A stretch of 64,000 nucleotides of DNA. Origin: Octopus vulgaris. Taxonomy: Eukaryota. The notes below the pieces were generated by a model, which had not been told where the DNA came from, ran no database searches, and was given only the letters and a program-made list of their open reading frames with translations. Numbering within the stretch: the first letter of the stretch is position 1; each line of letters starts with the position of its first letter. The translations under genes and the position numbers were made by a program. The DNA is taken from NCBI GenBank assembly GCA_951406725.2, contig OX597831.1, positions 992,001 to 1,056,000 of the forward strand. The letters are read 5' to 3'. Shown piece after piece: positions 7,811 to 56,936 of this stretch.

Positions 7811-8471
7811 GTCCGAGCAGAGGAACTGTCAATGTTATACACAGACTATAAGTACAGAGACTTCCTATAGTATTTCCCAACAGCAGACGTGTGAGTGGCA
7901 CAATTGCCTCCCCTTGTGACACATGTTGCAATTCTTCCACTCTACTGATCTACCGTCTTTGCATTGAAATCATCGCCTGAAACCGACCATTCCATATAAT
8001 TAACATAGATTTCTTAATGAGACGTGCATCGGTTGCTGTTGTTGTTGTTGTTGTTGCTGCTGCTGCACCAATTCTCTTGCAGCTTCAGTCATTTGCACTT
8101 GCACTACTATGGCACCACGTTGTGCAACAGTGAAGCTGCTGTACTGGCTTTCCTTCATGATTCTTTGTAGCAGGAGTGATGAGAAGTGGATGATACCACC
8201 CAAAGAACAAACAAAAATGTACGCACACACACACATACACACACAGACATGCATATATGCATATACAAGCATACACACATGCATACATGCACACATACAA
8301 AAACATACATACATTCTTTCTTTGTTTCTTTCTTTCTCTCACGCTGCTCTTAAGTTGCTGCTCTTTCTCTTTCTCTCTTTTTTCCCCCCTTATTTTCACC
8401 GAGTTTAAGATAAAGAAGAAGAAGAAAAAAAACAAGAAGACAAAGAAAAAGAAGAAGATTAAGGGACTTAC

Positions 8472-8570
8472 CTGCTTGATGATGGCACTCTGTGCCAGTT
8501 TCGCCGGGTCTGGTTTCGTCTCTCCATTGAGAGACTCGGTTGCTGTGCCGTCATTAGAGTCTACATCCAT
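8472..8570 (-). CDS. First coding exon (33 aa, MDVDSNDGTATESLNGETKPDPAKLAQSAIIKQ) of an unidentified host gene that continues towards lower coordinates
   Basis: Minus strand reads GGCC-ATG-G (strong Kozak context), 99 nt of open non-repetitive CpG-retaining sequence, then a consensus donor CAG|GTAAGT (phase 0) and a pyrimidine-rich intron start. Possible upstream acceptor TTTTTCCAG at 8990-8982. No further exon could be assigned. Confidence 0.75.
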
Positions 8571-12074: not shown

Positions 12075-14290
12075 AGCAAATATATTAGTTTGATGCTTAG
12101 GAGACTATTACTTGAAGATTTTGACAAAAAAGAGGAGGGAGTAGCATCACATAATGTTAAGGACAACTGGAGGTTCCTATGACACAACCTGTAGAGTGCA
12201 AGTGACCAGATCTGTGGCTGGTGCAAAATCCCCTCTTGACCTAAGGTAATGTGGTGGTGGAACAATGTAACTGACAGGGCCATTAGGAAAAAAAAAAAAG
12301 CAGGCATAAAAGGACTGGAAGTGCAGAGGTAGTGGGAACGGTCTCAGATTGCCAGAAGGGAAGCTAGGAGACAGGTTTACTAAGCCAAAGTGGAAGCAGA
12401 AAAGAAAAAATTTGCCAATGTTCTGCGTCGTATTTCGTATTGCAAGACAGTGTGTGAGAGAAAACTGTGATGTCATAGGAGAGAAATGTGACCGCATGGA
12501 TGATGGCTCACTTGCATTTAATGATGCTGCAAAGAGACTTGGAGATGCCACTATGAAAGGTTGCTAAATGAAGAGAACAAATGGGAGAGAGAACCTGCCA
12601 AATGTCGACCTAACAGAGGGACCAACTATTCAAATTGACTGTACCTTGTTAGATAAAGCAATTAAAGGTATGAAGACAGGGAATGCCTCTGGCCCAACAG
12701 GAATCACTGCAGAGATTCTTAAAATATCTGGCGGTGTAGGCTATAGTTTAGTCACCTGTGTAGTCAACCAGGTGATACATGAAGGAATCATACCCAATGA
12801 ATGGTGTAGCAGCACCATAGTCAACTGCTACAAAGGTAAAGGTGACACATTAAATAGGAATAACTACAGAAGTATCAAGTTGTTGGACCAGGTGATGAAA
12901 GTCATGGAGAGGGTCATAGCCCAACTAATTAGGGAGAGAGTTAGTTTAGATGGGATGCAGTTTGGGTTTGTGCCAAGGGGAAGCACCACTGTTGCGATAT
13001 TTCTGGTGAGACAGCTGCAGGAGAAATTCCTAGCCAAAGATGAACCTCTGTACTTGGGTTTTGTTGACATGGAAAGAGCCTTTAACAGGATCCTCCAACC
13101 CTTTATCTGGTGGTCAATGCACAAACTAGGGATAGATGAGTAGTTGGTGAGAGCTGTACAAGCCATGTACAGGGATGCTGTCAGTAAGGTGAGGGTTGGC
13201 AATGAGTATAGTAAAGAATTTAGTGTAGAAGTAGGGGTTCATCAAGGATCAGTCCTCAGCTCTCTCTCATTCATCATAGTCCTCCAGGCAATAACAGAGA
13301 AATTCAAGACAGGTTACCCTTGGGAGCTCCTCAATGCTGATGACCTTGCTCTGATAGAGGAGGAATTTCAGGTGTGGAAACAAGGTCTAGAAGTGAAGGG
13401 CCTTAGAGTCAATCTAGCAAAAACCAAAGACTTAGTAAGTAGGAAGGCAAAAAAATCATAAATCCCTTCAGGTAGATGGCCCTGCTTGATCTGTAGAAAA
13501 GGCATAGGTAGAAACTCCATAAGATGTACCTGGTGTAGGCTATAGTCTAGTAACAGAAGAGGGGCAGCAATATCAAAGGTTAACTGGGAAGATAGTTTTC
13601 TTGTGTGGTAGATGCACAGGGGCAATAAACACCAAAGATGTACAGAAAACATTCCATCACATGCTAGGGAAAAAAACCTAGAAGTAGTTGATAGCTTTTG
13701 GTACCTAGGTGACCAAGTCAGTAGCAGGGATGGATGCTCTGAGAGCGTAGCTGCTAGAATAAGAATAGCCTGGGCAAAGTTCAGAGAGGTCCTGCTTCTG
13801 ATGGTAACAAAGGGCCTCTCATACACAACAGAGTGTAAGCACTCTGAGAGAAAAGTTGGACATAAGAAGCATCAGATGCAAGAGAGATGATTGCACTGGT
13901 ATGATGTGTTGTGTATGGATGAGGACAGCTGTGTGAAGAAGTGTCCCATCCCAACAGTGGAGGTAACCTGAGGAAGAGGTAGACCCAGGAAGACCTGGGA
14001 TGAAGTGGTGAAGGATGACCTTCGAACATTGGGTCTGACAGTGGAATTGACTTTTGTAGAGATGTTGTGCTTGAGAAGACCTGGCAAGCCAAGTGAGATT
14101 ATAGCCATGGCCGATGCCAGTGTCACATATCTGGTTCATGTAAAAGTACCCTTCAATTGTTGGGTAATATGCTGTGCTTGAGAAGACCTGTTGAGGCAAG
14201 GGTAAAAAGCACCATTCAAGCATGGTCAATGCTAATGCCACCTGACTGACCTCCAATACTGTCCTGTAGTATTGGCATAAGTGGACTAAC
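12075..14290 (+). mobile_element. Decayed 5'-truncated RTE-clade LINE (reverse transcriptase pseudogene)
   Basis: NYRSIKLL, QFGF...STT.AIF..RQLQEK, FVDMERAF, GVHQGSVLS, NADD (13333-13344), a Cys-rich insert WPCLICRKG..NSIRC and the RTE C-terminal RGRPRKTW. In-frame TAG at 13141-13143 plus frameshifts. Confidence 0.92.
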
Positions 14291-20337: not shown

Positions 20338-22628
20338 CAAGAAGTTTGAAGGTAGCGACCTGGCAGAAACGTTAGCACAGCGAGTGAAATGCTTAGCGTA
20401 TTTCGTCTGCAGTTACGTTCTGAGTTCAAATTCCCCTGAGGTCAACTTTGCCTTTCGGGGTCGATTAAATAAATGCTAGTTACGCATTGGGGTTGATATA
20501 ATCAACTTAATCTGTTTGTCTGTCCTTGTTTGTCCCCTCTGCGTGTAGCCCCCTTGTGAGCAGTAAAGAAATAAGAAGTTTGATTCCCAACCACATGGTT
20601 TCAGGTTCAGTCCCATAACATGATACCTTGGGCAAGTATTTTTTTACTGTGGTTCTAGGCCAACTAAAGCCCTGTGAGTGGATTTGGTAGATAGAAACTG
20701 AAAGAAGTCTGTCATATATACACATATATTTTTATATGTGTGTGTGTGCATGTGCATGTTTGTTCTCCACTGCTGTTTGATAACTGGGGTTGATTTGTTT
20801 GACTAAAACCTTTCAAGGTGGTGCCCCAGCATGGCCACAGTCCAATGACTGAAACAAATAAAGGATAAAAGATATATATATACACACACACACATTTCAC
20901 CTTTTACTTGTTTTAGTCATTGGACTGTGGCTCAGCTGTAGCACTTCCATGAAGGGTTTTATGAAATAAATCATCTCCAATACATCATTTTGAAATCTGG
21001 AACTTATTCTATCAAACCCTTTTGCCAAACTGCTAAGCTACGGGGGACATAACAAGCCAACACTATATGCATGGCTGAGGCAGGGAAACAAGGGATAGAA
21101 GAATGAGTGATAAAGAGATGAGTGACAGGGAAATGGACATATGAAAAATGAGTGAGTATAAGCAGAGGATATATAGCTGAGTGATAAGGAAATTTGCTTT
21201 GCAACTTCATGGTTTTAACCGTTTAACATTCACATTATTCTGCTGAAAGTAATACTTTCAATTCATGTTGTTTTGAATTAATCATGCATATTTTGTAGCT
21301 TTGAGATTTTGATGAGGTAACTATTAATTTTTATGATGATTTTGTAGGGTTGATGTGAGAGGCAACATCTGACCAGTTTGATCATAAAACAGGCAGAATA
21401 TTTTGGCTGGATTTGGCCAGTTTAAATGCTAAAGGATCAAGTCAAGACCCACTACATGTCATTTTAGGCAAATGTCTTCTGTTATAGCTGCAAACTGACT
21501 AATGAGGGAACAATTGGATAATATTGTTCAAGGTATATAATATCTGAAAAAAGAGTTGGGATGGTCATAGTGGGAGTGCTTTTGATCATAGTTTTGCTCT
21601 ATTGATACCAAAATAGGCTAAACAAGAACAACTCATACAGACAGGCAGACACATTCATGTACAGCAGTAGAGGATGAAGGAGAGAGGTGAATGAAGAATA
21701 GATGTGTATGGAAGATGAAAATTGCAACAAATGTAAGGCAATGCGATAGCCAATGTCTTTTAGTGTCATGTATTGTGTTGTAGTGATTTTGCTGTTTAAT
21801 TGAAGAATTAGGTCTTTCATCAAAAGTCATCCAACTTTGCCTGTCCCTTATTTTCGAACATAGTGTCTCTAAGGTTACATTATTGAATGTATCCTTCCTT
21901 TATGGAAACAATTGTGAGTAATTTGAAGAAGATTTGGAGATTATTTCTAGTGGATCATGTAGAGATTCTCTCAGTGGCTTGTTATACTCTACTGAAAAGT
22001 ATTATATGATGCCATAATGTGTTATATTATCATAGTTGTGATATCATATAATGTTGCATTATGTTGTATGTACTGATAACATTAAATACCATTAACAGAA
22101 AAACTAAAACAAGATTCTCCAAAATAAGAGTCAGAGTCAACCATATATGATGATCTGGGTCAGTCCACAGGAGATTACTCTAACATACCAAAGGGAAGTG
22201 TATTCTCGCAGGTCTTACCACCAATCTGAACCTACCAAGTTAGAGTAAGCCCATTCAGCTACACCTATTTTACCACTCTTTGGCCACATTATGCTATAAT
22301 TGTGGTGAGAAGTGCATTGTTGGATAACAATAATGATAAGAATGATCACTTCTTACATAGGCACAAAGCCAGAAATTTTTTGGAGAAAGGGCGAGAACAA
22401 GAACAATAATAACTGTTTCTGATTTAGAGACAAGGCTAGCAGTTTTTAGGAGAAAGAGTTAGTTGACACTATAAACTCCAGTACTTGACTGATACTCTAT
22501 TTTATTGACCCTGGAGGGATGAAAAGCAAAGTTGACCACAGCAACAATTTGAATTGAGAATGTAAAAAGTTGGGATAAATAGCACAAAGCATTTAGCACA
22601 AACAAAAACAACAACAAAAATGATGATG

Positions 22629-23533: not shown

Positions 23534-23624
<91 letters not shown>

Positions 23625-23647
23625 TGATGATGATGATGGTGGTGGTG

Positions 23648-24820
23648 GAAGCTCAAGACTGAAAGCAGAGACTGAAAGTTTCATATTGGCTGCACAAGAT
23701 CAAAGCTTGCTTATCAAAGACTACCAGGCTAATGTTCTTCAAAACGGTTCTGACCCTAAATGCAGATTCTGTGATAAATTTGATGAAACAATAGACCATC
23801 TTGTCTCAGGATGTCCTGCACTGACACCAAACGAATACAAAAATCGCCACGATAGGGTAGGACAGTATTTACACTAGAAAATATGTAAACACTACAAAAC
23901 CAGCACCCCTGCTTACTGGTATGAGCATCATCCTGAGCCAGTCTTTGAAGGTAAAAATGTCACTATCCTCTGGGATTTTCCAGTCAACATTGACAGACCA
24001 ATCTAGGCTAATCGACCAGACATAGCCATTAAAGACAGGGAAGAAAATACTTGAAGACTAATAGATGTAAGTGTTCCCACTGATAAAAATATATTTGTAA
24101 AGGAATTTGACAAATTAAGTAAATATAAGGACCTGGAAATTGAAATACAAAAAATGTGGCATCTTAAAGTGAGAACTGTTCCTGTTATTGTGGGTACCCT
24201 AGGTATGATAAGAAAGTGATGTCAGAAACATCTAGATAATATCTCAGGAGAACCATGTCTCAGATAAATCCAAAAGATTGTGCTGACAAGTACTGCCTAC
24301 ATCCTTAGAAAAACCTTATCAATTTAAATATCTGTGTTGTATTACATGAAGCTATTTCACAACTGTCCCTGTTACTTCTCCTCCCCAAGCTTTCAATCAT
24401 ACTGTATGTTTTAATGTGGACCCTTGTCCACTTGTATGTCATTGTTGGCATTGTAATATTCTTGTCACCACTATTAAGTTGTAATGGTATTCCGTGTCTA
24501 TTTAGCTTTGACTTGTCTATCATGCTATCACTGACATCTCTGCAAGACAATGACTTTGAAACATCTACCTTGACAGTAATTCAAACTTGTATACATCACG
24601 TAACTGACACTGACTCCAACTGAAAACTCATATGACTCTTCTGCTACTACTGACCTCCTACAATGACTGACTGTCTGGCTTTATAGTGGCCTACACATAC
24701 CACTTTGTCATGTGGGAAGGGGAGTACCATTTTCACTGTAACATCTCTTATCCTTCCCTTGCCCTAAGATGCTGGGTATGTCTCAGCAAGTGATTGTAAC
24801 AAACATGCAGATTAAAAGTA
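23648..24820 (+). mobile_element. 5'-truncated R4/Dong-clade non-LTR retrotransposon in an (AAT)n tract
   Basis: AAQDQ, CCHC knuckle CRFC...ETIDHLVSGC, RHD, and restriction-like endonuclease NRPDI...IDVSVP...K..KY.DL, with several stops. (AAT)n at 23536-23622 and 24821-24850. Confidence 0.85.
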
Positions 24821-32564: not shown

Positions 32565-32650
<86 letters not shown>

Positions 32651-32864
32651 TTGAATTAGTGCTTAAGCACTGGAAACAGATATCTATGGAATTGAAGAGA
32701 TCAATTCTTTAACATGTTGTTAAGCTCCATTATATTATTACTTCAATGCAATAGCTATAACAGGAATGAATTTGTATACAAGTGGCAAAAACAAATATTC
32801 AGAGCAGAATATTAGGAAGAACAGAAAACAAAGATTTCGGAGATATTTCAAAATTCCATTTGTT

Positions 32865-32987
32865 TTGCTCTACAATTGTTTCCATGGTTTAAGTGCAAGC
32901 ATCAGCAACCATATAATCATTATATAATTAATACATAATCAATAAATTTAGTTGGATATGATGAGCAAGTCATTTCATCAGGAGCAA
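32865..32987 (-). ncRNA. Type I hammerhead ribozyme (Penelope-type)
   Basis: UUGCUC-CUGAUGA-[A AUG...CAU G]-GAAAC-AAUU-GUA-GAGCAA: perfect 6-bp stem I, intact core, palindromic loop 3. Confidence 0.7.
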
Positions 32988-33094
32988 TTTTGGAAATATA
33001 AATGGAAACAAGTGTAGAGCAAAGCAAATAGAATTTTGAAAAGATCACTGAGCGAGTCTATATTTTTGAGATGAGGAATTATGTACATTATTTA

Positions 33095-33502
33095 CAATGG
33101 ACAGATAGGTGTCTTCACCTTGTTTGTAGTTACCACTGAGTAAAACCACCCATGGAAGAGAATATGACCAAAAACTGCATATGCTCCATCTCATGCAGTT
33201 GCAGTAGGTCATACAAAGACAAAACATGCCACCCCATTAAAATAAGGGTAGAGGAACATCGTTAAGTTGTGACATGAGGGGATATTGAAAATTTGGGTAT
33301 AGCTGATCATGTACAGAAAAACAGAGACCAGCTCCCTCTGTGGAATGAAGTTGAAATAATAGATGAACACCACTGGAAAATACGAAAATTAAAAGAGGCA
33401 GCACATATGCTGGGACACGATAACCTCCTAAGCAGACTTAGTGCAGATATGAATGTAATATGGGAACAGATATTAAGAAAAGATAAGATATTAGATTTAT
33501 AA
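33095..33502 (+). mobile_element. Penelope-like element fragment, GIY-YIG endonuclease
   Basis: ICSISCSCSRSYKDKTCHPIKIRVEEH (degenerate VY.IPC.C...Y.GET.R.L..R..EH), followed by GIADHV...WNEVEIID..HWKIRKLKEA. Confidence 0.75.
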
Positions 33503-34423
33503 GCCCAAAATTTCACTCTATATTTGCCTACAGGCATATAGCATTAGTGGATAAGAACGTGGGCTACAAACCCTCATATTCTGAATCCAATCCCAGACAG
33601 GGACTTGCAAAATAATGTCAAGAAAAAATAACATCAGCAAAAAAAAAAAAAAAAAAAAAGAATACCTTAGGAATAAGAACAGAGTACCCCATTAGTCAAA
33701 TAATGGGTTGGGTTTAAAATTCCACCAGAACACTGGATGAAATCTGAAGAGTACATCAGCCCAACAAACAAGGTGAGGATACCTATCTGTCCATTGTAAA
33801 TAATGTATTACTGAGCTATTTTGTTTTCTATTTTCATATATATATATAGCATTAACTGATATGTGTGTGTTCAAATTATGTAGTAGCTCAAAATTAAAAT
33901 GTTTATGTAGATGATTTGCTTAATGCATTTATAATATTGAAAAGTCAGATGCTACAATGATCATCTTAGGAAAGGTCCTTTTATAGATGTATTGTGTAAA
34001 AAAATATATATATATATCTTTAAGTATATTGTACTTTTAGCACACTACATTTATAAAGGAATCTTTCCTGAGAGAACCAGTGCAACTTATCAATGATATA
34101 CTTGCATTAAAATCAAAGTGTAATGTGTATATATACATAAATACATGTATATTTACATATATAAACATATGTATGTATATGTATGTGTGTGTGTGTGTGT
34201 ATGTATTATTATTAATAGAATTCAATATTATATTCTCATAACAGCAAATTCACCAATCCTTTTCATACAACTTAATAAAACCCCAACAATCATCAGAAGA
34301 GGGATAATGTGGCGTGGGCTCTTTGCTAACGGCTGTCTGATTATTGGTTACATAAAACTCTGACTTAAAGTTTGGGAAGTCTTGTTAGCTTCAATAAAAC
34401 ACTATATATATATATATACATAC

Positions 34424-34803: not shown

Positions 34804-37490
34804 CAGATATGTCAAATTCCTGGCCCGTGGGCCACTTCCAGCCCTTGCAGCAATTTCATTTGGACTGCAGGACCATTTTGATATCAGCATGAAATGTCCA
34901 AATGGCGACATCTGCAAAGAGAGTGCTTTTTTGCCCTCAGCAACACTCATACCTTCTTGTTATAACTACATATACAGAGTGTGTGTAGCTTAAGCAGGCC
35001 ATTACATTATATATAGCACTGACTGCACTACCTTTCTTACTAAGGGTGTCACCAAAAGTAGCAATAATTTAACACATGACTAGAAACAACTCTATTGTAA
35101 TTATTACACCCTGTTTGTACAAAAAACACATTAAAGAGGCATGATAACACAACCACAAGTCTTAATTGCAACTGCAACAAAGCATGCTGAGAAATGCCTC
35201 CTTTGAGTCTCTAATCGTGTGTTGTGAAGCGCTGATGATGCAAAATCTACTAATCCCATAATGCACTGCAACAGCTGCCTTACCGCTCTTTCAGGTGATC
35301 ATTTTCACATGATGTCATTCAGTAGTAGTTGCTATCTATATCAATGGCCAAGAGAAAAGTCAATGCTGGAAACCGATCCTTTCAAATCCAGTGGGAAACT
35401 GAGTACATGTTTATTGATATTGATGGTAAACCCATGTGTCTTAATTGTGGTGCTAATGTTGCTGTAATTAAAGAGTATAATCTCAAATGCCACCACAAGA
35501 CAAAACATCAGGACCAGTATAAATACCTCACTGCTGAGCAGAAGCAACGAAAGGTAGACAAGTTGAAGAGGTGTCTCACATTACAACAGACCTTTTTGAC
35601 CAAAGCAAAATCACAAAGAGAAGCTGCTATTAAAGCAAGTTTTATTGTGGCAGAGAAGATCACAAAATTAGCCCAACCATTTTTACTGAAGGAGAGTTTG
35701 TGAAGAGTTGCGTGATGGAGATGTGTGACATTTTGTGTTGAGACAAGAAGCAACTGTTTGCTAATATGAGTATTAGCAGAAATACGATTGCTGATTGGGT
35801 GTGGGAGATGGCCACTGATTTGAAAACACAGTTGATTGAAAGAGGAAGCAATTTTGTTGTATACTCTCTTGCTGTGGATGAGACTACTGACATGACTGAT
35901 ACGGCACAGCTGGCTGTCTTCATCTGCAGAGTGGACTCCAATTTTTTCATCATGGAGGAAATTTTGGACATTAAGTCAATGCATGGGACAACAGGAAAGG
36001 ACCTTTTTGAAAAAATAAGTCAAAGTGTAACTGACATGAATTTGCCTTGGGACAAACTTGTTAGACTTATAACAAATAGAGCAATGGCGATGTGCAGTGA
36101 AAAAAGTGGACTAGTGGGTAGGATACATTTAAAGAGGCAAGAAGAGAATTGCACTGCTAAGTTGGCAACATATCACTGCATCATACACCAGGAAACGTTG
36201 TATGCTAAAGCCTTAAAAATGGAACATGTAATGAACACTGTAACGCAAACCATAAACTTTATCCAAGCCAGTGGGTTAAATCACAGCCAATTTCAGTCTT
36301 TCCTCTGGGAAATACATTCAGAGTTTGGTGCTGTGTCTTATCATATGGAGGTGTGGTGGCCCAGTCGGGGAAAGGTCTTCAATATAGTTTTTGAGGTAGT
36401 TGAGGAGATATGACAGTTCATGGACAGTAAAGGAAAAGAATTCAAAGTTCTGCAGGATGAAAAGTGGAAATGCGAGTTGGCATTTCTGGTTGACTTAGCT
36501 GCGCATCTCAATGTTTTAAACATCCTGTTCCAGGGAGTGGGATCGCAAGATCTGTGATATGTATGATGCAGTGAAGGCATTTCAAGTGAAGCTGCGCTTA
36601 TGATAGAAACAAATGCACCAACTGAACGTGTTTCACTTTCCCTGTTGCCAAGTAATGTTGAACCAAGTCAGTGACACGGTGTTCTGAAAGCAACACTTTG
36701 CAGATAAAATGAGTGCACAAAACTGAATTTACATGGCACTTTAGTGACTTTGAAGCACAGAAAAATAACTTTGAGCTGTCTTGCAACCCATTTGCTGTCA
36801 ATGTCGAAACTGCACCTGTACAGATTCAAATAGAGTTGATAGAACTGCAGTGTAGTGGGATATTAAAAGCAAAGTACGACTCTGTGGGCCCTGCACAGTT
36901 CACTCACTTCATACCTGAAGCAATGCCTCAGCTTCGTTTACATGCAGCTTGAACGCTGTCTTTGTTTGGAAGCACATATCTGTGCGAGCAACTGTTCTCT
37001 GTGATGAAGATGAATAAAACATCACATAGGAGTTGTCTCACAGTTGAACACCTGCAATCCATCCTGATAGTCTCAACAACACAGAACCTTGCCCCAAACA
37101 TAAATGAACTCACTGCCAAGAAAAAATGCCAAGTATGTAGCTTGGACAAAATTGCATAAAGAAAATTGAAAGTTTTGATTTATTATTTTAATTTTCACAA
37201 AAAGCACATTTTTTATTTATATTTTCTTTTTTTTTTTTTTGTTTGCAACATGTTCTTATTTTAAACTTTTATCATTTTGACAGGAGATATTTTTATGCAG
37301 AGCAAAATATTCTATGTAATTTAAGTTAAAGTTAATTTATTTTTGGAATAATATTATATACCATCTGTTTCAATACATGTTCATGTTCAAAAAGTTTTAG
37401 TGTATTCAAGAAATGTTTATCCTGTTCGGCTCACAACCTAAAGTGTACTCTGAGTTTTGACCCCCTGTGCGATTGAGTTTGACACCCCTG
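34804..37490 (+). mobile_element. Full-length decayed hAT (Charlie/SPIN-like) DNA transposon, 2687 bp
   Basis: Right TIR GAGTTTGACACCCCTG, degenerate left TIR CAGATATGTCAAATTC, 8-bp TSD AAATAAAT/GAATAAAT. Confidence 0.92.
35344..37159 (+). pseudogene. hAT transposase pseudogene (GTF2IRD2/Buster-like family)
   Basis: BED-like finger CLNC...HHKTKH, SLAVDETTD..DTAQL, HCIIHQE, EVWWPSRG and FGSTYLCEQLFS; several frameshifts and stops. Confidence 0.92.
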
Positions 37491-48008: not shown

Positions 48009-49411
48009 GAATATATCTATATTTATGTCTTTACGTTCTGAGTTCAAATTCCACCGAGGTGGACTTTGCCTTTCATCCCTTAGGGGGTCAATAAATTAAG
48101 TACCAGTTGTGTTCTGGGGTCAATCTAATTGACTGGCCCCTTCCCCCAAAGTTTCAGGCCTTGTGCCTAGAGTAGGAAAGAATATATCTATATATATGTC
48201 TTTATGTTCTGAGTTCAAATTCTGCCGAGGTCGACTTTGCCTTTCATCCCTTAGGGGGTCGATAAATTAAGTACCAATTGCGTACTAGGGTCAATCTAAT
48301 TGACTGGCCCCTTCCCCCAAAGTTTCAGGCCTTGTACCTAGAGTAGGAAAGAATATATCTATATATATGTCTTTATGTTCTGAGTTCAAATTCTGCCGAG
48401 GTCGACTTTGCCTTTCATCCCCTTGGGGGGGGGGTCGATAAATTAAGTACCAATTGCGTACTAGGGTCAATCTAATTGACTGGCCCCTTCCCCCAAAGTT
48501 TCAGGCCTTGTACCTAGAGTAGGAAAGAATATATCTATATATATGTCTTTATGTTCTGAGTTCAAATTCTGCCGAGGTCGACTTTGCCTTTCATCCCCTT
48601 GGGGGGGGGTCGATAAATTAAGTACCAATTGCGTACTAGGGTCAATCTAATTGACTGGCCCCTTCCCCCAAAGTTTCAGGCCTTGTACCTAGAGTAGGAA
48701 AGAATATATCTATATATATGTCTTTATGTTCTGAGTTCAAATTCTGCCGAGGTCGACTTTGCCTTTCATCCCCTTGGGGGGGGGGGTCGATAAATTAAGT
48801 ACCAATTGCGTACTAGGGTCAATCTAATTGACTGGCCCCTTCCCCCAAAGTTTCAGGCCTTGTACCTAGAGTAGGAAAGAATATATCTATATATATGTCT
48901 TTATGTTCTGAGTTCAAATTCTGCCGAGGTCGACTTTGCCTTTCATCCCTTAGGGGGTCGATAAATTAAGTACCAATTGCGTACTAGGGTCAATCTAATT
49001 GACTGGCCCCTTCCCCCAAAGTTTCAGGCCTTGTACCTAGAGTAGGAAAGAATATATCTATATATATGTCTTTATGTTCTGAGTTCAAATTCTGCCGAGG
49101 TCGACTTTGCCTTTCATCCCCTTGGGGGGGGGGGGTCGATAAATTAAGTACCAATTGCGTACTAGGGTCAATCTAATTGACTGGCCCCTTCCCCCAAAGT
49201 TTCAGGCCTTGTGCCTAGAGTAGGAAAGAATATATCTATATATATGTCTTCATGTTCTGAGTTCAAATTCTGCCAAGGTCAACTTTGCCTTTCATCCCTT
49301 AGGGGCCAATAAATTAAGCACCAGATGCGTACTGGGGTTGATCTAATTGACTGGCCCCCTCCTCCAAAATTTCGGGCCTTGTGCCAAGAGTAGAAAAGAA
49401 TATATCTATAT
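48009..49411 (+). repeat. Tandem array of 8 headless SINE-C units (171-178 bp)
   Basis: Unit starts at about 48030, 48201, 48372, 48548, 48723, 48900, 49071 and 49249; GAATATATCTATAT bounds the array and separates every unit. Confidence 0.95.
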
Positions 49412-56050: not shown

Positions 56051-56700
56051 TACATATATATATATATATAGGGCAAGTGTCTTCTATGATAGGTAGAGGG
56101 CAATGAAAACCTTCTGAGAAAATTTGATAAATGGAAACTGAAAGAACCCATTGTATATATGTATTAGCATGTGTGTGTATATATGTGTGTGAGAGAGTGG
56201 GTGTAAGTGTGTGTATGCTTGTGTCTGCTTGTCTTGATATCACATGCTAGCTGTAAATAAGTGTCACTGTCATACAAGCAATGTCATTCATTTCGAATGA
56301 AGAGAAAACACACCTGAGAAGACATGTTTGGTCATGAAGAAATATTAACTTTACATGGAAGCAGGTGGAGGCTGGTAACAGAGTGGGTGCCTGAATGTAG
56401 AAAATCTGCGTCAACAAATTGTCTAACCCATGCAAGTACAGAAAAGTGGAAGTTAAAATGATGATAACAATGGTGATGGTGTATGCACATATCACACACA
56501 CACACACACACACACACGCGCGTGTGTGCACATGCATGCACATACTAGTTACTCAAGGCTGAGGTTCCACTTCATTCCTATTCTTAGCTTCACAATTCTG
56601 AATAAAGACAGTAAATAGAATCCACTGATTCCAATAAAAGGATAAACTACATACATACATACATACATATCAAAATAAGCAACAAGGATATCCAGAGGTA

Positions 56701-56789
56701 ATGCAGTACGATCGTTTCATGCAACTCCATTTAATTGAACAGTGCAATCACTACATCAATTTAAAATGCAGAGCAATCTTCAGCTGCAC
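56701..56789 (-). ncRNA. Type I hammerhead ribozyme (Penelope-type)
   Basis: GUGCAG-CUGAAGA-[UUGC...GCAU]-GAAAC-GAUC-GUA-CUGCAU: 6-bp stem I, long paired stem II, palindromic loop 3. Confidence 0.8.
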
Positions 56790-56826
56790 AAAGACAACGA
56801 ATTTAATTAAATTAGAACAGATGGAC

Positions 56827-56874
<48 letters not shown>

Positions 56875-56877
<3 letters not shown>

Positions 56878-56930
56878 GGTGTCCCAAAAAAATGTATACA
56901 AGGTGTGTATACATTTTTGGGGACACCCTG
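56875..56930. mobile_element. 56-bp Tc1/mariner mini-MITE consisting almost only of two TIRs
   Basis: CAGGGTGTCCCAAAAAAATGTATACA / TGTATACATTTTTGGGGACACCCTG within (TA)n. Confidence 0.85.
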
Positions 56931-56936
56931 TATATA

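Follow-up and report, generated by a model that had tools for sequence, protein, structure and literature searches.

Results

The hammerhead locus and its flanks

The window, the 64-kb stretch of DNA that was analysed as a whole, contains a 157-bp island at 56670-56826, with a (TACA)n tract on one side (56648..56669) and a (TA)n tract on the other (56827..56874); both tracts, recognised from the sequence, are likely to represent the insertion site. The minus strand of the island harbours a type I hammerhead ribozyme motif. Its parts, in transcript order, are the 5' arm of stem I (GUGCAG, 56784..56789), the core from C3 to A9 (CUGAAGA, 56777..56783, N7 being 56779), stem II (the 58 nt between A9 and G12, 56719..56776), a segment carrying G12-A14, the palindromic stem III/loop 3 (56715-56708) and an A at N17 (56707..56718), and the 3' arm of stem I (CUGCAU, 56701..56706). 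Stem II was assigned by folding and the remaining parts by sequence reading, with pair probabilities of 0.73-1.0 for the 3' arm of stem I. GAAA begins at G12 (56718), the triplet is GUA with A17 at 56707, and on this reading the predicted cut site falls at 56707|56706. Stem I has 6 bp and ends in a G-U pair. Stem II has a U-U at its base (positions 10.1/11.1), followed by UGC/GCA, two internal loops and a long hairpin capped by a tetraloop. From A15.1 to U16.1, all eight letters (ACGAUCGU), and not the tetraloop alone, form a perfect palindrome.

The type I core set is complete (C3-U4-G5-A6-N7-G8-A9, G12-A13-A14, A15.1-U16.1 and H17), three helices surround the core, both RNA ends lie in stem I, and the constrained fold has an energy of -20.3 kcal/mol. 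An earlier sequence-only reading had described stem I, the core, the 58-nt stem II, stem III, the GUA triplet, the 56707|56706 cut and the U-U, and had placed them in an island of approximately 160 bp between (TACA)n and (TA)n; all of these statements were verified. The motif departs from the canonical type I hammerhead (4-bp helix II, terminal loop 2 contacting loop 1, G10.1-C11.1), its helix II being an interrupted hairpin of 58 nt that has a U-U at the base. The stem II internal loop, four pairs up, lies approximately where canonical loop 2 would be, and a loop-loop contact is conceivable, although this is speculation. Stem I might also be extended past an internal loop (56790-56795 with 56689-56693, minus strand) by a weak 5-bp helix, whose pairs are three G-U or U-G, or else A-U pairs only.

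Stop-free frames cross the island, the longest of 123 aa and partly read from (TA)n. Pfam recognised nothing in three frames located within the island or directly adjoining it, so that the 157 bp of the focal copy show no coding capacity by this measure, and no host exon was identified near it among 15 frames scanned. No second copy of the focal family, and no tandem copy, was present in the 64 kb, in agreement with the description of the motif as solo within the window. The (TA)n tract adjoining the island also contains a small element with perfect inverted ends (56872-56933), probably a miniature DNA-transposon derivative.

Several other features were observed in the window. A tandem array at 48009-49411 (approximately 8 copies of a 171-bp unit, 95% identity) harboured no hammerhead by the descriptors used. 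Broken LINE reverse-transcriptase frames lie at 12568-13890 on the plus strand (RVT_1, E 1.4e-6), and broken transposase-like frames with a weak DUF4371 match, which we take to be probably a hAT-type remnant, at 35329-37156 on the same strand. A short plus-strand frame at 23620-23877, with a weak zf-RVT match, is probably a non-LTR retrotransposon remnant. On the minus strand, an exon-like stretch beginning with ATG is located at approximately 8470-8570; the Pfam analysis of the whole frame gave low-complexity matches only, and the end of the stretch presumably resembles the start of a La-motif protein.

A second hammerhead in the window is joined to a Penelope-like remnant

A strict descriptor (full core, a palindromic stem III, no fewer than 6 bp in stem I and no more than 100 nt of spacer) identified two matches in the 64-kb window, compared to none in 200 and none in 600 locally shuffled windows. 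The second match is a type I hammerhead at 32865..32987 on the minus strand, with a 6-bp stem I, the core CUGAUGA, a 92-nt spacer, the palindrome ACAAUUGU and GUA. It has the same design as the focal one, its sequence is unrelated, and it is located 24 kb away. Its spacer is less paired at the base (z -1.7, 61/1000 shuffles).

A broken coding remnant of a Penelope-like C-terminal endonuclease, with two in-frame stops, was identified by homology at 33140..33502 on the plus strand. It is joined head-to-head to the segment with the second hammerhead via a 44-bp inverted repeat (33084-33127/33764-33807), and a 40-bp inverted repeat is also present (32846-32885/33002-33041). Pfam gave no match on the remnant itself, and its frame (X at the two stops) had 562 relatives at E<=1e-3. 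Among 13 of these homologs scanned, RVT_1 was found at E<1e-4 in 7, with 5 above the curated cut-off, and a weak match to GIY-YIG after the reverse transcriptase (RT) in 2. The best match of the remnant was an Octopus vulgaris hypothetical protein (71%). When six proteins of Penelope-like elements (PLEs) were compared to the window by tblastn, the sole coding remnant was 33140-33487, from a family other than that of the island. The second locus is therefore a long-armed palindromic hammerhead that adjoins the 3' remnant of a PLE within (TA)n.

The stretch 32648-33830 has the appearance of an inverted, truncated Penelope-like insertion between (TA)n tracts. It has approximately 220 nt after the predicted cut, including a pyrimidine-rich tract ending in AG that, judged by eye, might mark the 3' splice site of a 5' intron in the PLE.

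Folding statistics and database searches

The 58-nt stem II alone forms an interrupted hairpin of -16.6 kcal/mol (z -2.9), a value equalled by 10 of 1000 dinucleotide shuffles. The stability of the whole 89-mer was just modestly above that of its shuffles (z -1.6, 10/200). Rfam returned no hammerhead at the gathering threshold in the 64-kb window, and zero hammerheads among the 53 matches at E<=10 around the locus, the top weak ones being due to the small element at 56872-56933. The 58-nt stem II is probably behind the Rfam miss.

Spaced-pattern searches gave 9 metagenome and 79 viral matches. These were attributed to chance, none having a stem I longer than 4 bp, and all 88 loci were dropped (blastn likeness to either hammerhead region in 0/88). 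An exact 22-nt pattern had no matches in prokaryote genomes, an 18-nt pattern had one in the viral collection, and no PLE protein was found in a search of viral contigs. A third hammerhead, to which weak blastn matches near 21776-21915 had pointed, was absent on inspection.

The focal hammerhead is predicted to cleave as a dimer

In the focal monomer, the hammerhead form had a probability of 2e-4 (-20.3 kcal/mol vs. -23.9 kcal/mol for the lowest-energy fold), as the core becomes base-paired to the stem III region and the pairing at the base of stem II slips in register. When two copies were co-folded, the lowest-energy structure was the double hammerhead (-55.4 kcal/mol vs. -47.8 kcal/mol for two misfolded monomers), as the sequence-only reading had anticipated in stating that such hammerheads cleave best as dimers; these energies are nearest-neighbour predictions that ignore tertiary contacts and Mg2+. 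Stem III was stable in the dimer model only, where the intermolecular helix has 8 bp, and the self-duplex of the palindrome amounts to -10.0 kcal/mol. A heterodimer of the two hammerheads of the window was rejected because their stem I arms do not match. Cleavage by the focal-family hammerhead is predicted, from this model, as a dimer only, and the isolated focal copy would probably be inert. Dimeric PLE hammerheads were reportedly treated by Lunse et al. in 2016.

The island belongs to an abundant repeat family

Part of the island was present in 23 of 24 sequencing runs from 12 studies. Contigs from four of the 24 runs (X1, X2, X15 and X19, carrying three organism labels) were aligned to 167 bases around the island. 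X2 is probably DNA, X15 and X19 are guessed to be RNA, and X1 has no recorded kind. As none of the runs listed is recorded as RNA, X15 and X19 do not count as evidence of transcription, and the twenty other runs do not count as support. The numbers of contigs aligned were 4797 (X1), 4930 (X2), 161 (X15) and 23 (X19). These thousands of contigs bear out the assignment of the motif, in the sequence-only reading, to the type I hammerheads of mobile families of the PLE or retrozyme kind. The summed core depth was 1.3-1.4 million in X1 and X2, compared to 32-57 in 15 of the 16 single contigs listed. The family would have roughly 1,000 copies if overlapping words are counted separately and up to roughly 30,000 if they are not, depth not being the same as copy number. 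The alignments and their loose ends define a repeat-family copy at 56670..56826 on the minus strand, 5'-truncated and probably corresponding to the 3' terminus (pLTR region) of a PLE.

Variation was analysed in the best 40 of 64 variant rows. Among these rows, N7 (56779) was the sole variable position from C3 to A9 (A>G, 39% in X1 and 21% in X2); nine further X1 places at 3% or above (four C>T, four G>A and one T>C) are outside these rows and may include the core. Ten of the rows listed fall in the motif at 3% or above in both X1 and X2, six of them at unpaired positions (N7, loops or tetraloop, and bulges). Position 10.1 varied in 0.3% of X1 and 0.04% of X2, and A15.1, U16.1 and N17 in at most 0.3% in both runs.

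The changes in the stems followed the pairing. At the stem II pair 56751/56742 the window has G-C, where 99% of the X1/X2 depth has A-U; among the rows listed, these were the sole near-fixed differences within the 89 nt, the chance of a random pair being 0.2-0.7%. In 10-14% of the X1/X2 depth, stem I ends in A-U and not in G-U. The change at 56720 (16-18%) alone breaks the first stem II pair; its partner change at 56775 was found in loose-end consensuses of 58 and 91 contigs, never on the same contig as the change at 56720, and the pair 56775/56720 occurs as U-A, A-U and probably G-C (X15). Two loop-3 variants (2-7%) kept the dimer duplex via G-U pairs. Among the rows listed, family variation respects the hammerhead fold. 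The long stem II thus appears, from its sequence variants, to have been kept as a structure in the mobile lineage; a protein binding site and a guard against monomer cleavage are both candidates for its role.

In X15 (guessed RNA), nine A>G or T>C rows between 56699 and 56776 exceeded 5%, at less than 1.5% in X1/X2. The X15 rows above 5% include the cut-site base N17, at 12.7%. The A>G/T>C rows look like A-to-I editing of both strands, and expressed subfamilies could explain part of the pattern, because six rows of other kinds behaved alike.

Limits of the copy

The limits of the copy were marked by loose ends at 56663/56669 and at 56827, a finding that derives from 24 of 330 rows. Beyond 56827, one common sequence continued in 34 X1 contigs (agreement 0.82) and 27 X2 contigs (0.80); one X19 contig had this continuation as well, and X15 had one resembling it. 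Contigs of all four aligned runs went past or near the 5' end (56819-56827). As other copies share this continuation, the focal copy is 5'-truncated, and the earlier suggestion that the 160-bp island is itself the mobile unit finds no support.

Depth over the 3' half of the ribozyme was 3-4 times that over the 5' flank, a gradient to which edge effects and the private changes of the focal copy at 56797-56798 may partly contribute. Depth was flat across the cut site in X2, indicating that genomic copies generally carry both sides, and it sloped without a step in X1.

The 3' end of the copy comprises 56670..56700 on the minus strand and, by coordinates and loose ends, the copy stops 37 nt after the predicted cut. 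Two kinds of loose end were present on this side: TA-rich loose ends before 56663 (47 X1 and 44 X2 contigs) and a non-TA extension before 56669 (81 X1 and 88 X2 contigs, with an agreement of only 0.56-0.58). The non-TA extension had an agreement of 0.82 in X15 (8 contigs); it is a candidate PLE tail. Of the five joints listed, four were opposite-strand and one was a deletion, with one contig per run each; a clear inversion was present at the second hammerhead locus only. None was head-to-tail; this applies within the 167 bases aligned, outside which junctions are invisible. No RT/endonuclease ORF was linked to the focal family in the approximately 30 nt readable beyond the truncation point.

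Discussion

Origin of the island

We consider it probable, though by no means certain, that the island represents the 3' end of a PLE that targets (TA)n, truncated at its 5' side, with a ribozyme predicted to work only as a dimer. The marks of PLE insertions given in the accessible text of PMC8557442 are 5' truncation, inverted pieces, an optional tail of 30-40 bp and microsatellite or (TA)n targets. The focal copy has a hammerhead near its 3' terminus, with the cut 37 nt from the end, and is truncated at the 5' side; together with the 3'-weighted depth, the two kinds of 3' end, the opposite-strand joints and the (TA)n flanks, this matches the PLE pattern of the available parts of PMC8557442 and PMC11167929. 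The second long-stem hammerhead of the window, beside a PLE endonuclease remnant, provides an internal parallel. Against a PLE end stand the lack of a linked RT/endonuclease ORF in the short readable stretch upstream, the published cephalopod Hydra and Naiad consensuses, which are unlike the island, and the very high copy number, which would also suit a non-autonomous family. Moreover, each joint is supported by one contig per run and the depth gradient may be partly an edge effect.

If the island is a PLE end, the RT-endonuclease of the element would have nicked AT-rich microsatellite DNA, as published PLE biology suggests. Reverse transcription would then have begun at one of two sites close to the 3' terminus of the RNA, producing copies with or without the tail, and would have stopped after approximately 157 nt. 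The template would have been uncut or re-ligated RNA, because both sides of the cut site were copied. Two copies on a tandem transcript would pair via the 8-nt palindrome and form the double hammerhead, while a single copy would misfold. Alternatively, the element's own protein might refold the RNA, as in the anole element.

It is also quite possible, although we would not call it probable, that the family derives from a PLE but is non-autonomous and non-coding, resembles a retrozyme or SINE of perhaps 200-400 nt, and borrows PLE enzymes, which is the proposal of the sequence-only reading extended to a longer unit. In its tandem arrays, dimeric hammerheads would release monomers or circles; the focal copy would be a truncated dispersed monomer. 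The very high copy number and the lack of an ORF in reach suit such a derivative, and changes that preserve structure at a distance from the core point to selection on the whole RNA. Retrozymes of 220-390 nt with type I hammerheads occur in coral, mussel and axolotl according to the available text of PMC7229834; the coral hammerheads described there are canonical with typical helix sizes, unlike the focal one. A 2026 preprint by Li, Clavereau and Pollet, in its accessible part, derives retrozyme units from PLE pLTRs and reports dispersed monomers; it places the origin of animal retrozymes in PLE termini and states that most PLE insertions keep one terminal repeat, so the gap between a PLE end and a non-autonomous derivative is narrower than it may seem. 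Head-to-tail joints, which tandem arrays would leave, were 0/5 among those listed within the aligned bases, the limit on visible junctions given above applying here, and the 64-kb window has no tandem copy. The pattern of truncation, inversion and tail fits a PLE end equally.

It is very unlikely that the host has recruited the focal copy to regulate, through self-cleavage, a transcript crossing the locus. Its core is intact and it has a compensatory change compared to the family majority, but any young copy from so abundant a family is expected to have such a core, and a subfamily or species difference accounts for the compensatory pair equally well. Folding predicts a misfolded monomer, the 64 kb contain no partner of the same family, and the 15 frames scanned revealed no host exon nearby. 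Finally, a chance match in AT-rich repetitive DNA, or a hairpin-type repeat with meaningless core-like letters, might be suggested by the Rfam result and by the fold of the 89-mer, modestly above shuffles, but it is already largely refuted by two descriptor matches against none in 800 shuffled windows, by N7 as the variable core position together with compensatory stem changes, and by a second, unrelated hammerhead attached to a PLE remnant, and we dismiss it.

What the long stem II adds

Solo type I hammerheads from truncated PLEs are known in thousands across the genomes of many animals, and the focal find is therefore expected. The architecture adds something: stem II arms of 58 and 92 nt occur in two unrelated families within one 64-kb window. 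The core search published in PMC8557442 used, in the accessible text, a spacer of 7-17 nt and put cases of 35-50 nt aside as half cores. Long-arm motifs such as these two would be missed under this spacer limit, and Rfam is blind to them; cephalopod hammerhead counts, and the "no ribozyme" calls for some PLE families, may be underestimates. The focal family might also provide a clean test of what PLE hammerheads do, as the monomer should be inactive and the dimer a perfect double hammerhead according to the folding model, and its thousands of natural variants reveal where in the long arm selection acts.

A bolder proposal, which we regard as unlikely, is that octopus genomes carry thousands of copies of a protein-free RNA that parasitises PLEs and has a long stem II with covarying pairs. 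Hammerheads with long arms (58 and 92 nt, in two unrelated families) that work as dimers only would then be a general cephalopod-PLE class unseen by Rfam and the usual descriptors, and the long duplex and the cut site might be substrates of A-to-I editing able to switch cleavage off.

Comparison with known hammerheads and elements

PLEs account for 6.83% of the genome of O. vulgaris and fall into 190 families. The focal ribozyme and its (TA)n site look like a Hydra-type PLE end, a clade call by resemblance only. Both are type I with CUGA(A/U)GA, a basal U-U, UGC/GCA and a short self-complementary stem III; both target (TA)n, the distance from cut to end is 37 nt here compared to 36-47 nt in three of six consensuses, and the clade is present in octopus. 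In the Hydra clade, stem II has 12-26 nt (58 nt here) and stem III 9-10 nt (8 nt here). The accessible material of PMC8557442 gives a U-U at the base of stem II in 14/25 Hydra-clade families, U-UGC...GCA-U in 8/25, and a preference for (TA)n in 24 of the 27 Hydra families listed, one of them from Octopus bimaculoides. The distance from the cut to the 3' end, counted by eye in six consensuses of that source, is 36, 46 and 47 nt in three and 88-116 nt in the other three.

The U-U, which the sequence-only reading had thought might lower activity, is near-fixed in the focal family. It is thus the family norm, shared with more than half of the Hydra-clade families in the available data, which speaks against decay, and an axolotl hammerhead with a U-U cleaves in the accessible text of PMC7229834; the claim is weakened accordingly.

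Hydra-1_Obim was rejected as the source, being a different family without a sequence match to the island in a motif search and by-eye reading. A Naiad origin was likewise rejected, as the O. vulgaris and O. minor consensuses and the 3' part of the O. bimaculoides consensus are unlike the island by eye. Motif searches of the cephalopod Hydra and Naiad consensuses were blank, although motifs split across line ends would escape them. According to the parts of PMC8557442 that are accessible, cephalopod Naiads target (TA)n and one is labelled "HHR_half_core".

The minimal and variant PLE hammerheads of metazoans (Cervera and de la Pena 2014, PMC4209133) are similar in being mostly single dispersed motifs attributed to truncated PLEs, with a palindromic 15.2-16.2 pair plus loop 3; the tested case was inactive as a monomer and weakly active as a dimer. 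They differ in helix II (6-8 bp with a conserved G10.1-C11.1, compared to a hairpin of approximately 20 bp with a U-U in the focal motif). The available text counts approximately 2,000 hammerheads in Schistosoma mansoni and, for Xenopus tropicalis, 9,000, most of them single, and its dimer model for metazoan type I hammerheads agrees with our fold prediction.

The axolotl HHR_Amex2 (Cervera and de la Pena 2020, PMC7229834; Li, Clavereau and Pollet 2026) shares with the focal motif type I topology, a 2-bp stem III, a tetraloop and the basal U-U. In the accessible part of PMC7229834, it was 22% cleaved in an hour alone, with its U-U and 2-bp stem III, and cleaved much more as a dimer. Axolotl retrozymes are also alike in their tens of thousands of copies, better dimer cleavage and dispersed monomers. 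Retrozymes differ in being defined, in the available text of these sources, by head-to-tail units of 150-450 bp that each carry a hammerhead and, where tested, circular RNAs, and their helix II is far shorter than the focal one.

The Poseidon element of Anolis carolinensis (Frangieh et al. 2024, PMC11167929) also has an AT-rich target. It has two internal RT start sites, which lead to an optional tail; its insertion template is uncut RNA, and its hammerhead is inactive without the element's protein, as far as the accessible text goes. In the same text, the Poseidon ORF starts inside stem II and copies extend more than 100 nt past it, while the focal copy ends 37 nt after the cut, with no ORF start evident in it.

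PLE-X1 of spike mosses (PMC8557442 file S2) provides a precedent for long PLE arms, with a long stem II/loop 2 of approximately 54 nt in PLE-X1_sMoe, an arm marked as off-canonical by the source. In the part of that file available, it differs as a plant, endonuclease-less element targeting 28S rDNA, without a palindromic 8-nt stem III.

Craig et al. (2021, PMC8557442) was the sole relevant work found on octopus hammerheads, a result that may differ for subscription journals, Repbase and bioRxiv supplements; two octopus repeat papers do not mention ribozymes in their main text, and a search for long or extended stem II together with retrotransposons gave one review. Compared to these systems, the solo PLE-end hammerhead is of an already known kind, and the new part is the stem II of 58-92 nt.
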